DNA of 11,635 bases from a virus (lineage: Duplodnaviria; Heunggongvirae; Uroviricota; Caudoviricetes), in the IMG/VR virus record IMGVR_UViG_2660238190_000006. The stretch is one strand, 5' to 3'. A model generated the notes under the pieces. It saw nothing but the letters and a program-made list of their open reading frames with translations. It was not told the DNA's origin and searched no databases. Of the stretch, positions 1 through 11,635 are shown in pieces (positions within the stretch are counted from its first letter, which is position 1; every line of letters begins with the position of its first letter). Both the position numbers and the translations under genes were made by a program.

Positions 1-1218
1 ATGAACAAACTGAGCGATACCTTGCTAAGGAAACTTCATGGTAAGCCAGCGGAGAAAAACACGTTTTATAGTGATGGCGGAAACCTGAGCGTGAAATATT
101 TAACATCAGGGAAATTGACCTGGTATTTCACATACAGGGCCGGAACGGGAAGGGAGACACGACCCGAACGCATTAAGCTGGGAAGTTATCCTGATCTGAG
201 CCTGAAAGCAGCCAGGGAAAAAGCCGCACAGTGTCGCACATGGCTGGCTGAGGGGAAAAATCCACGTCATGAGATGAATTACACCGTACAGGAAGCGTTA
301 AAGCCCGTAACGGTTGGCGATGCGCTCACCTACTGGCTTGAGTATTACGTAAAGGAAAACCGCGTGGATTATATCGCCCTGAAAAGGCGACTTAATAATC
401 ACGTAATACAGCAGATTGGTGCTATGCCGCTGGATAAATGCGAGCTACGGCACTGGCTGGCCTGTTTTGACCAGGTGGCAAAGCGAACGCCTGTTACTGC
501 CGGATTCGTGCTACAGGCGTGCAAACAGGCGCTTAAGTTCTGCCGTAGGCGGCGCTATGCAATCAGCAACGTTCTGGACGATCTGAACGTGGCGGACGTT
601 GGGAAAAAACCGGATATAAGCGAACGTGTCTTAAGTAACAAAGAACTTGGCGAATTATTGCAGGCACTGGACAAAAAAATATTTTCCCCTTACTACGTCG
701 CGTTAATCCGCCTCCTGATTGTCTTCGGAGCCAGGACGGTAGAACTGAGGCTATCGGAGATCGGGGAGTGGGATTTTACGGAAATGCTATGGACCGTTCC
801 GAAGGAGCACAGCAAAACGAAGGTCGCAATATTCCGGCCCATACCGGAAGCGATCCTGCCGTTCGTCACGCAGCTGGTGGAGCAGAACAGGCACACGGGC
901 TTATTGCTGGGGGAAGTGAAACAGGAGGCCAGCGTATCGCAGTATGGAAGATTAGCGCACAGGAGGCTTAATCATCCTCACTGGTCACTGCATGACATCC
1001 GGCGCACCTTTACAACCATGCTGAACGATTTAGGCGTTGATCCGCATGTCGTGGAGCAGCTTACAGGTCATCAGATGCCAGGAATTCAGCGAGTTTATAA
1101 TCATTCCCGTTATCTGGATGCTAAACGCAATGCGCTGGATATGTGGATGGAGCGGTTAGGGATACTGGCGGGAACACATGAAAACGTAACCACGCTACCA
1201 GTAGCCAGAAGAAAATAA
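1..1218 (+). CDS. int: Tyrosine site-specific integrase, P4-like
   Basis: 405-aa ORF starting at base 1. N-terminus (MNKLSDTLLRKLHGKPAEKNTFYSDGGNLSVKY...WYFTYR) resembles the arm-binding domain of P4-type integrases. C-terminal catalytic signature HDIRRTF...GHQ...RVYNHSRY fits the R..H..R..Y tyrosine recombinase motif. Confidence 0.9.
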   Translation: MNKLSDTLLRKLHGKPAEKNTFYSDGGNLSVKYLTSGKLTWYFTYRAGTGRETRPERIKLGSYPDLSLKAAREKAAQCRTWLAEGKNPRHEMNYTVQEALKPVTVGDALTYWLEYYVKENRVDYIALKRRLNNHVIQQIGAMPLDKCELRHWLACFDQVAKRTPVTAGFVLQACKQALKFCRRRRYAISNVLDDLNVADVGKKPDISERVLSNKELGELLQALDKKIFSPYYVALIRLLIVFGARTVELRLSEIGEWDFTEMLWTVPKEHSKTKVAIFRPIPEAILPFVTQLVEQNRHTGLLLGEVKQEASVSQYGRLAHRRLNHPHWSLHDIRRTFTTMLNDLGVDPHVVEQLTGHQMPGIQRVYNHSRYLDAKRNALDMWMERLGILAGTHENVTTLPVARRK

Positions 1219-1260: not shown

Positions 1261-1320
1261 ACAGATACAACATGCAACAATGAGCAACAATGAGCAACAA
1301 TGCGGAACAACTACGAACAA
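1261..1320. repeat. Six tandem 10-bp-phased repeats ending in AACAA (two exact TGAGCAACAA units); candidate Int/AlpA (excisionase-like) binding array
   Basis: Seen: acagatacaa / catgcaacaa / tgagcaacaa / tgagcaacaa / tgcggaacaa / ctacgaacaa with strict 10-bp register, in the int-alpA intergenic region. Function is inferred. Confidence 0.6.
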
Positions 1321-1602
1321 GAGACGAAAAAGTGTACGGATTTATAAGTAGCTGATTTTTAATGTGTTACTGGTTTTTTATACACTAGCGAATCACTCTT
1401 TAAATAGCGAGAAAAAAGGCATGAAACAATATTTTATGCCTTTGTATTAACATGAATTTAAATGATTTTATCCTGATTATTCCTGTTTCTGTAAACCATA
1501 CGACCTCAACATTTGCCAACTCTGAATCATCCTGACACAATCAGACACATCCCAACGCAATAGAACACGAAATAACTCTTTAAGAAACGAAAGGGGGCAA
1601 TA

Positions 1603-1791
1603 GTGTTAAGCACTGATCGGTTTATACGTGAAAAAGAATGCGAAAAGCTAACAGGCCTTAGCCGCTCATGCCGCTACCGCCTGGAAAAGGCCGGACAATT
1701 CCCATCACGTCGTAAACTTGGCGGTCGTTCCGTTGGCTGGTCTTTATCCGAGGTTCTGGCCTGGAAGGATAGCTGCAAGGCAGTTCATTAA
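1603..1791 (+). CDS. alpA: AlpA-family (Xis/MerR-like HTH) transcriptional regulator / excisionase-like protein
   Basis: 62-aa ORF with GTG start preceded by AAAGGGGG. Sequence ...KECEKLTGLSRSCRYRLEKAGQFPSRRKLGGRSVGWSLSEVLAWK... matches the AlpA pattern (tG.sr...Y.l...G.FP...lg.rsvgW...ev..W). Typical position immediately downstream of int. Confidence 0.8.
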   Translation: MLSTDRFIREKECEKLTGLSRSCRYRLEKAGQFPSRRKLGGRSVGWSLSEVLAWKDSCKAVH

Positions 1792-5402: not shown

Positions 5403-5593
5403 AAGTGAGGAGCAAAAGCGAGGGGGATAGAAAGAGGGCCAAAATTAGCCCGCTCCCCCTCACTTTTCGACCTGTATACATCCTCAAAAGTGAGGGGTAA
5501 AAAAATACTTATGAAACACACACATAGAAAAACCGAAAATCCCAACTGCGACGAAGTGAGACGCTTGAAAAAGTGAGGCGAAAAAGTGAGAGG
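5401..5593. promoter_or_regulatory. Iteron cluster (AAAGTGAGG repeats, both orientations) with an AT-rich spacer; putative replication origin and/or operator
   Basis: Seen: AAAAGTGAGG at 5401-5410, inverted copy at 5455-5467, AAAAGTGAGGGG 5486-5497, GAAGTGAGAC 5553-5562, AAAAAGTGAGG 5568-5578, AAAAAGTGAGAGG 5581-5593, plus degenerate AAAGCGAGGGGGA 5415-5427. An AT-rich tract at 5497-5545 lies between copies. Position directly 3' of the replicase gene is typical for satellite/PICI origins (inference). Confidence 0.55.
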
Positions 5594-6867: not shown

Positions 6868-6890
6868 AGCCGGAGCAATCCGGCTTTTTG
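6868..6890 (+). terminator. Rho-independent terminator after the PerC-like gene
   Basis: Seen: AGCCGGA-GCAA-TCCGGCT stem-loop followed by TTTTT. Confidence 0.65.
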
Positions 6891-6918
6891 TCATGTTTTG
6901 TAAATTATTTGTTCGTGG

Positions 6919-6933
6919 TTGTTCCACGTTGTT
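6919..6933. repeat. 15-mer TTGTTCCACGTTGTT (copy 1) within three tandem TTGTTC-containing decamers
   Basis: Seen: exact 15-mer shared with 11370-11384. Local context tatTTGTTCgtggTTGTTCcacgTTGTTCgctg. Confidence 0.5.
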
Positions 6934-7111
6934 CGCTGACCGGATCGGCATATTTTACCCGAACTGAATCATGATTATTCTCGCCCGTGGTGCCAGGACG
7001 CTGGGGCCACTTTCCCGCCTGTTAATGTGCCCGCCAATATTCATTACCAGGCGGGAAAACGATCGGTGCGATTGCTGATTTCCTTATGAAAAACGGTTGA
7101 GTGTTTGCCGC

Positions 7112-7148
7112 GTCCTGGAGTTCCTTACTTAACTTCAGGACTTTTTTT
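7112..7148 (+). terminator. Strong intrinsic terminator/attenuator hairpin ending in T7, directly abutting the capsid start codon and sequestering its RBS
   Basis: Seen: 11-bp stem GTCCTGGAGTT (7112-7122) pairing with AACTTCAGGAC (7131-7141), one G-U pair, 8-nt loop, then TTTTTTT (7142-7148), then ATG at 7149. The AGGA RBS (7137-7140) is inside the 3' arm. Confidence 0.6.
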
Positions 7149-11170: not shown

Positions 11171-11369
11171 GATGCTTTTACCCCATTGGGGGAAAGGTAT
11201 TACGATAATCATAACACCTACCGAACAGGTAAAGCCCACCAGCCTGATTAACGTTTAACCGGAAAAAAATTCCGGTAGGTGGGGATCCCCATATCGACAT
11301 TAACGCCCCTCATGAATTGGTGCGCTTCCCCCTGGAAAGATGATCCGCCTGTATATTTCTTGTGTCTAT

Positions 11370-11384
11370 TTGTTCCACGTTGTT
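11370..11384. repeat. 15-mer TTGTTCCACGTTGTT (copy 2)
   Basis: Seen: exact match to 6919-6933; shared TATTTGTTC prefix as well. Confidence 0.5.
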
Positions 11385-11470
11385 TCATACAGTGCACCGA
11401 ACGGTGTAGTCACTGGTGTAGTCATTTTGCGATTTTTGGCACTTTTTGCGGTGAAAATTATTTAATTAAA

Positions 11471-11635
11471 TCAACGTGTTATGTGAAATAAGTTATATAT
11501 AACAGCAATAAATAATGCGAGAATAAACGGCACGATGATCTCGGCGGCAAAACGGATACCGCAGAGAATAATGACCAGCATTCCCAACATAATGACGATT
11601 TTTAGGCCATTGAGCGTGATGATCGGCTTTGCCAT
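11471..11635 (-). pseudogene. tqsA: 5' fragment (54 codons) of an AI-2E-family transporter gene (TqsA/YdgG-like), apparently truncated at the island junction
   Basis: Minus-strand ORF starting at the last base of the window: [54 protein letters not shown]. The N-terminal 45 or so residues match my recollection of E. coli TqsA; the ORF then diverges and stops. It is shorter than 60 aa, so absent from the supplied track. Confidence 0.45.

Follow-up and report, generated by a model that had tools for sequence, protein, structure and literature searches.

A run of direct repeats, spaced exactly 10 bp apart, lies between the integrase gene and the alpA gene in a satellite of E. coli. The questions raised by this locus are which protein would read the repeats and what that protein would do from there. 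They are addressed here in a stretch of 11,635 nucleotides (IMG/VR virus record IMGVR_UViG_2660238190_000006), called the window throughout, and in its relatives.

The island and its genes

The window is an E. coli capsid-forming PICI (cf-PICI) of the EcCIEDL933 type, inserted in tqsA. Islands of this class are recognized by an int-alpA-replication module together with their own capsid, protease, portal, connector, HNH, TerS and TerL genes, without tail or lysis genes, by a length of ~10-15 kb, and by a specific att site. All of these features were found, the gene order being read from locus L001 and from EcCIEDL933 (L005), and the window being bounded by the split tqsA. L001 is near-identical DNA in E. 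coli NMBU-W12E19, where the annotated order is tqsA' - int - HTH regulator - icd-like - replication protein - ssb - perC - capsid, continuing with protease - portal - connectors - HNH - terS - terL. In the int-alpA spacer, the window is 89% identical to the prototype EcCIEDL933 and 78% identical to the classical PICI EcCICFT073.

The far end of the window (11471-11635, - strand) is the 5' part of tqsA, which encodes an AI-2 transporter; it reads into island DNA and then stops. The window thus spans the island from the int start codon to attR. The sequence TGCTGTTAT is common to this 5' part and to the tqsA 3' part beside int in L001. Sister islands with ~90% identical Int use other sites, namely roxA-phoQ, abgR-smrA or cspD-clpS. 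The genes and the att core on which the argument turns are as follows.

1..1218, + strand: int, a tyrosine recombinase with PF00589 and an N-terminal PF13356 (Arm-DNA-bind_3) domain
1603..1791, + strand: alpA, encoding a 62-aa winged-helix excisionase-type protein, the proposed ligand of the repeats (PF05930, Phage_AlpA, E 5e-18)
11499..11507, - strand: TGCTGTTAT, probable crossover core inside the split tqsA

The AF2 model of AlpA, predicted from the single sequence, has a pLDDT of 87 and the topology H-H-E-E-H. Its best PDB match is the GIsul2 excisionase 8c3t (TM 0.79, 39% identity), followed by RdfS and TorI. By this predicted fold, AlpA is an excisionase-type (recombination directionality factor, RDF) winged helix, and the element encodes a small winged-helix RDF of its own. 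The P. aeruginosa AlpA antiterminator was rejected as a model: larger than PICI AlpA and Q-like, it recognizes a lone GGGACG element, with contact residues R128-H142, so that the two proteins have only a name in common.

The repeat array between int and alpA

1261..1320, + strand: array 1, six 10-bp units of the form nnnn[G/C][G/A/C]-ACAA, proposed AlpA binding platform

Array 1 begins 43 bp past the int stop codon and ends 283 bp ahead of the alpA start codon; its placement between the two genes, as first read, is borne out by the Pfam domains of their products (int 1-1218, alpA 1603-1791). In order, the units are ACAGATACAA, CATGCAACAA, TGAGCAACAA, TGAGCAACAA, TGCGGAACAA and CTACGAACAA. The sequence-only reading had described six units all ending in AACAA. 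The six exact 10-bp units stand, but AACAA ends only five of them (starting at 1276, 1286, 1296, 1306 and 1316, in exact 10-bp steps); the first ends in TACAA, and the ending common to all six is ACAA. The next 10 bp (1321-1330) end in AAAA. Tandem Repeats Finder reports a period of 10 at 1274-1310 with 92% matches. The repeats are direct, in a single orientation and about one helical turn apart, which is the arrangement of an RDF array.

AACAA by itself is not enriched across the window (30 seen vs 34 expected). The phased pair is: allowing one mismatch or none, AACAA-N5-AACAA is present 10 times where 1.24 would be expected, and 0 of 200 shuffles match that count. A position weight matrix (PWM) built from 33 distinct units, and scored as the sum over three phased units, gives 32.7 at 1271-1300 (+ strand), the maximum over 200 shuffles being 17.3. 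Array 1 is real and far beyond chance.

Conservation of the array was followed in 70 distinct int-alpA spacers, obtained from an IMG/VR integrase search (80 loci) and from E. coli loci. Wherever the 62-aa AlpA is encoded (at least 90% identity), the island has an array of 5-6 units that keeps the 10-bp register exactly; 22 sequence variants of the array were seen. The array is kept in about 60 related islands, with ACAA and the 10-bp phase constant while the spacers drift. Among 18 right-aligned variants, the mean pairwise difference per site is 0.022 in the ACAA columns vs 0.394 in the six spacer columns, and variable columns number 4/20 in the motif vs 27/30 in the spacers. Judged from these alignments, such a contrast bears the mark of selection for a short motif and its phasing and not of recent repeat expansion. 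EcCICFT073 carries a 6-unit version. The window has one extra perfect TGAGCAACAA copy. Elsewhere this copy occurs only in L010, an IMG/VR contig whose Int, AlpA (both 100% identical) and spacer are the same as those of the window and which may be its source; among 877 complete E. coli genomes that match, the best are 10 bp shorter here.

Further copies of the motif

The inverted motif (TTGTTC) forms additional phased arrays at the perC-capsid junction, in the attR arm, and in the attL arm of relatives. In the window, the phased-pair search of the minus strand matches at 6909-6933 and 11370-11384, and the PWM, against the same shuffle maximum, scores 32.2 at 6909-6938 (-) and 32.3 at 11360-11389 (-).

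6909..6938, - strand: array 2, three phased units CAGCGAACAA CGTGGAACAA CCACGAACAA
11360..11389, - strand: attR-arm array, three phased units TATGAAACAA CGTGGAACAA ATAGACACAA
11403..11425, + strand: GGTGTAGTCAC-T-GGTGTAGTCAT, candidate Int arm-type pair, 13 bp from the attR-arm array

The attR-arm array is also present in the attR arms of EDL933, CFT073, L007 and L008, and in relatives four units stand in the attL arm, immediately ahead of int. Every related island examined carries the same set: i) a 4-unit array in attL; ii) the 5-6 unit array after int; iii) a weaker array over the predicted alpA promoter; and iv) a 3-unit array in attR. Among these islands, the 3-unit array past the perC terminator is confined to cf-PICIs; it was found in L001, L002, L005 and L007 and is absent from the non-capsid PICIs CFT073, L008 and L009.

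In the window this last array, array 2, lies just past the perC terminator (6868-6885) and ~210 bp ahead of the capsid gene. Its position suggests a further action of AlpA in cf-PICIs, at the start of the packaging operon. Relative to their downstream genes, array 1 and array 2 have opposite orientations. A consensus scan of the array 2 surroundings, the perC-capsid interval and the attL arm found no sigma-70 promoter. At 7112-7141 (+ strand), directly before the capsid ATG of the EDL933 annotation, is a strong 11-pair hairpin followed by seven T; it may terminate or attenuate transcription into the packaging operon, or else act in translation.

The predicted alpA promoter and the proximal array

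1513..1541, + strand: predicted alpA promoter, TTGCCA-17 bp-CACAAT with TG upstream, from a consensus scan
1531..1570, + strand: array 1b, weaker phased units CCTGACACAA TCAGACACAT CCCAACGCAA TAGAACACGA

The predicted promoter, TTGCCA-17-[C/A]ACAAT, is invariant in 63 loci. Its distance from the proximal end of array 1 is 192 bp in 45 of the 63 and 193-196 bp in another 17. The spacing thus stays at 192-196 bp in 62/63 loci although the spacer DNA diverges by ~22% (window vs CFT073). By eye, no convincing hexamers were found for a leftward promoter out of array 1.

Array 1b overlaps the -10 and the early transcribed region of this promoter, its first unit being the -10 hexamer itself. Its PWM score is 22.1 in CFT073 and 15.1 in the window (1521-1550, + strand), where it exceeds the 95th percentile of the shuffles and stays below their maximum. 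The array has 3 or 4 units depending on the lineage, with lengths that differ by exactly 10 bp. This difference falls between the invariant TTGCCA and the alpA leader (window 1519-1570 vs L005 17290-17330) and amounts to 4 vs 3 phased ACA units; thus, like the distal array, the proximal one differs between lineages by entire units. From ACAA to ACAA, the offset between array 1 and array 1b is 220 bp, or 22 repeat periods.

Other features of the spacer were noted. A hairpin, AAGGCAT...ATGCCTT, at 1416-1445 has its T-run on the minus strand and therefore looks like a leftward intrinsic terminator. One of its stem pairs changes from A-T through G.T to G-C across lineages, and the hairpin has no Rfam match. 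In the window the hairpin is overlapped by a 9-codon mini-ORF with its ATG at 1421; CFT073 has no such overlap. The sequence ACTCTTTAA occurs twice, 180 bp apart: at 1395-1403, in a conserved block after array 1, and at 1575-1583, in the part of the alpA leader that directly precedes the ribosome-binding site. Across 11 diverged lineages, either copy shows almost no variation. An Rfam-type search found 0 known RNA families in the int-alpA spacer or in the rest of the window.

Readings without AlpA or integrase

The extra perfect copy in the window, which the closest relatives lack, is what a neutral, slippage-prone tandem repeat without function might show. Such a repeat is a very unlikely explanation of array 1, because the spacers have diverged ~18-fold more than the ACAA columns, which slippage homogenization would not produce; the same motif recurs at three or four other unlinked places, and the distance from array to promoter is fixed. 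Phased direct repeats are also typical of iterons, and the P4 ori and crr iterons contain TGTTCACC. It is nonetheless hardly conceivable that array 1 is a set of origin iterons for an island initiator, since every Rep type comes with iterons of its own, located directly behind the rep gene, whereas the AACAA array is the same in all three islands compared. Iterons are expected beside the initiator gene and specific to that initiator, and the AACAA array is neither; this candidate was rejected.

The three islands encode different replication proteins: a RepA-like helicase in the window, a DUF927 protein in EDL933 and a primase-type protein in CFT073. They share only the N-terminal ~125 residues (62-82% identity). 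In the window, AAGTGAG(G/A) occurs six times at 5403-5590, one copy being inverted at 5459, directly after the helicase gene, and this stretch is likely to be the replication origin. At the same place, EDL933 has iterons of TAACCCGCA and CFT073 has iterons of GTCTACC.

AlpA sites or integrase sites

The att arms contain a second repeat, and in the window this GGTGTAGTCAC-type pair is restricted to the att arm. Two copies of GGTGTAGTCAC stand beside TTGTT units in both att arms (window 11403-11425; L001 11844-11866). In the attL arms of L001, L005, L006 and L008, the TTGT units adjoin the arm pair in the same layout as in the attR arm. The pair comes in three variants, each associated with its own version of the Int N-domain.

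Arm pair GGTGTAGTCAC: goes with Int N-domain segment ..SVKYLTSGKL..
Arm pair GGTGTAGTTAA: goes with Int N-domain segment ..SVRHSTSGLL..
Arm pair TGTGTGGTCAGT: goes with Int N-domain segment ..EIKHSKGGKL..

The match of three pair variants to three N-domain variants makes the pairs candidate integrase arm-type sites. AlpA is 98% identical between islands with GGTGTAGTCAC and those with GGTGTAGTTAA pairs.

The AACAA array behaves differently. Between the window and EDL933, the Int N-domains are 78% identical and AlpA 98%, and both islands have the AACAA array. In L009, the Int N-domain is 80% identical to that of EDL933 and AlpA only 55%, and a different phased array occupies the array 1 position. 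Depending on the lineage, the post-int array of the L009 type reads aaATCG-tagaatATCG-gaaaatATCT or aaATCG-tcgaagTTCG-accaaagTTCG; a CGAAC(A) array lies ~110-150 bp upstream of alpA in L009. These type-2 islands, with a 69-aa AlpA that is 55% identical (L009 16600-16650 and 16820-16870; L064-L089), have a hairpin right after int and then the phased array, whose (A/T)ATCG, GTTCG or ATATCT units resemble the TorI core GTTCG; their second array, of CGAAC(A) units, is upstream of alpA. In the att arms, type-2 islands read TTGTTCG, enriched in CG as their promoter arrays require, and type-1 islands read TTGTTCC, TTGTTTC and similar. That type-2 arms retain TTGTTCG when TCG is the part stressed in the promoter arrays speaks against AlpA as the reader. 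The motif thus changes with the RDF: type-1 AlpA goes with AACAA, and type-2 with (A/T)TCG, GTTCG or CGAAC. Since the arm pair tracks Int and the AACAA array tracks AlpA, the pair behaves as Int arm-type sites and AACAA (TTGTTC) as AlpA sites. The same motif is found in the att arms beside the pairs that we infer to be Int arm-type sites. Only a handful of independent events underlie this covariation (two to three AlpA types, three Int types), and part of the pattern could also arise from linkage within recombination blocks.

These comparisons bear directly on the possibility that array 1 is itself a set of integrase arm-type sites, from which Int regulates transcription or bridges distant DNA. 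Int does have an arm-binding domain, the motif occurs in both att arms, and the arm copies keep TTGT in islands with diverged AlpA. But array 1 lies ~1.3 kb or more from the attL core, past the 1.2-kb int gene, where arm sites would be expected within roughly 50-150 bp. Its motif is the same across Int N-domains of 78% identity and is replaced at 80% Int identity when AlpA is different. The separate, arm-restricted repeat follows the Int N-domain through all three variants, and array 2 occupies a promoter-like position far from any att site. Array 1 as arm-type sites, one of the two options first raised for it, is therefore quite unlikely; the repeat that follows the Int N-domain is the double GGTGTAGTCAC, not AACAA. 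It is rather unlikely, too, that some other DNA-binding protein reads array 1, either the island DUF4222 protein or a host response regulator of the OmpR, ArcA or TorR type. The DUF4222 protein is encoded in all these islands, and its divergence parallels that of AlpA, so that the two cannot be told apart by covariation alone; it has no known DNA-binding role. Regulators of the OmpR, ArcA and TorR type bind phased direct repeats of 10-11 bp with TGTT/ACA-like cores, which speaks for a reader of this kind. Against such readers, each att arm has the sites next to Int-type sites, the placement known for RDF sites in KplE1, and the motif changes with AlpA type inside one host species, which a host factor would not require. 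PerC was rejected as a reader of the array, L008 having no perC and keeping the array.

Proposed role of AlpA

The favoured reading, held with reasonable though well short of full confidence, is that array 1 represents 5-6 head-to-tail sites for cooperative AlpA binding, and that this copy acts on alpA transcription. The arrays, their conservation and placement, and their covariation with AlpA type were observed; the identity of the ligand, the cooperativity and the action on alpA are points that we infer. The earlier suggestion of a cooperative platform on one DNA face, for a protein of the AlpA/Xis type, is thereby indirectly supported: the att-arm copies beside the Int-type repeat, the tracking of AlpA type and the likeness to TorI sites all point to it.

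According to the proposed mechanism, one AlpA monomer would bind per 10-bp unit, reading ACAA (TTGT[T][C] on the other strand) on one face of the DNA, and the monomers would form a cooperative nucleoprotein filament. The att-arm copies beside the Int arm-type sites would serve excision, the copies upstream of and over the alpA promoter would serve autoregulation, and the cf-PICI copy after the perC terminator would place AlpA ahead of the capsid/packaging operon. Array 1 would be the distal cis-element of AlpA positive feedback, 192 bp upstream of the -35-like element, and would possibly work together with the proximal array over the promoter.

Self-activation by AlpA has been reported. In EcCICFT073, AlpA activates its own promoter, PalpA, and not Pint, and its over-expression leads to excision and replication (PMC6092414); alpA is required for induction of EcCIEDL933 (bioRxiv 10.1101/2022.09.08.507074). 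EcCICFT073 and EcCIEDL933 belong to the same island family, with AlpA 93-98% identical, and both have the array. The fixed spacing between array and promoter, the 220-bp offset and this self-activation are the grounds for proposing array 1 as the distal platform of the alpA control region; by sequence, this copy probably serves alpA autoregulation.

Two functions first attributed to array 1 find no support for this copy. Control of int expression was one, but the array lies downstream of int, the int promoter must be in the attL arm, and the AlpA of EcCICFT073 does not act on Pint. The other was the directionality of excision, for which the arm copies are placed and array 1 is not. From a site downstream of int, control of either int initiation or excision directionality is unlikely.

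Array 1 lies at about -230 to -290, which is far upstream for a simple activator. The sequence is equally compatible with activation by looping to array 1b, by unsilencing of the AT-rich spacer, or through a further, hypothetical promoter within the conserved block 1352-1405. The overlap of array 1b with the -10 would suggest repression, not the published activation. As a tentative extension, a single motif might let AlpA act directly at four or five places, i.e., the att arms, the distal and proximal alpA arrays and the head of the capsid operon, with loop or filament feedback and a threshold set by the number of units. Because the distal and proximal arrays are exactly 220 bp apart, an AlpA filament or loop could create all-or-none positive feedback.

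Relation to known excisionases

In lambda, Xis monomers bind head to tail on the phased sites X1-X1.5-X2, forming a bent microfilament beside an Int arm site. The lambda sites are in one arm only and have no promoter role; in the PICIs, arrays of as many as six units occur, at promoters as well as in each arm. P4 Vis, an AlpA homologue required for excision, autoregulates PLL and stimulates Psid, the promoter of the capsid-size operon. Like 186 Apl and P2 Cox, Vis is a small protein that binds phased direct repeats and couples excision to a transcriptional switch, as is proposed here for AlpA. Apl and Cox belong to other sequence families and are mainly repressors between divergent promoters. 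The 186 Apl protein binds direct repeats one helix turn apart, at att and at promoters (PMC7498355).

The closest parallel in site layout is KplE1 (CPS-53) of E. coli K-12, in which TorI, a small winged-helix RDF, binds five attL sites with cores GTTCG, GATCG or GTCCG. The sites are 8 bp long; three are 2 nt apart (10-bp phase), are bound cooperatively and abut the -35 of PintS, and the TorI sites are followed in attL by the IntS arm sites and then intS (PMC2951348, PMC3509656). In the MG1655 sequence, the TorI-site region reads acaGTTCGtcatgGTTCGcttcaGATCGTTGACA. As in KplE1, the PICI attL order is core, TTGTTC-type units at 10-bp phase, Int-type pair and int, and the arm units TTGTTC(G/C) compare with TorI GTTCG at the same phase. 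TorI is distant from the window AlpA, with 26% identity and a pairwise E of 2e-4, and scores too low for the Pfam AlpA family. Reports place TorI sites in attL alone and describe repression of int from there; PICIs have further arrays, in the alpA promoter region and ahead of the capsid operon. Unlike TorI, PICI AlpA is reported to be an activator without control of Pint.

In the PICI literature searched, no AlpA binding site, operator or att-arm architecture was described for EcCICFT073 or EcCIEDL933. Literature on PDB 8c3t and GIsul2 held no binding-site information, and the papers on the Shewanella CP4So and Pf4 excisionases gave no AlpA-type site motif. The design, a dual-purpose excisionase-regulator on phased repeats, is known; the novelty appears to lie in the motif and in the four to five places that it occupies in PICIs and cf-PICIs of E. 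coli.

Implications for satellite induction

These arrays leave the general picture of how excisionase-type proteins act unchanged. The switching-on of Gram-negative PICIs is only partly understood: AlpA is necessary and self-activating, and its DNA targets are undescribed in the literature searched. The motif map gives concrete candidate sites to mutate and footprint, and the motif predicts a direct AlpA regulon of cf-PICIs. If the all-or-none feedback proposed above is true, it would commit the satellite to induction, and the presence of 5 or 6 units would tune the threshold. The motif also offers a sequence signature by which the att arms and control regions of such satellites may be recognized in genomes.
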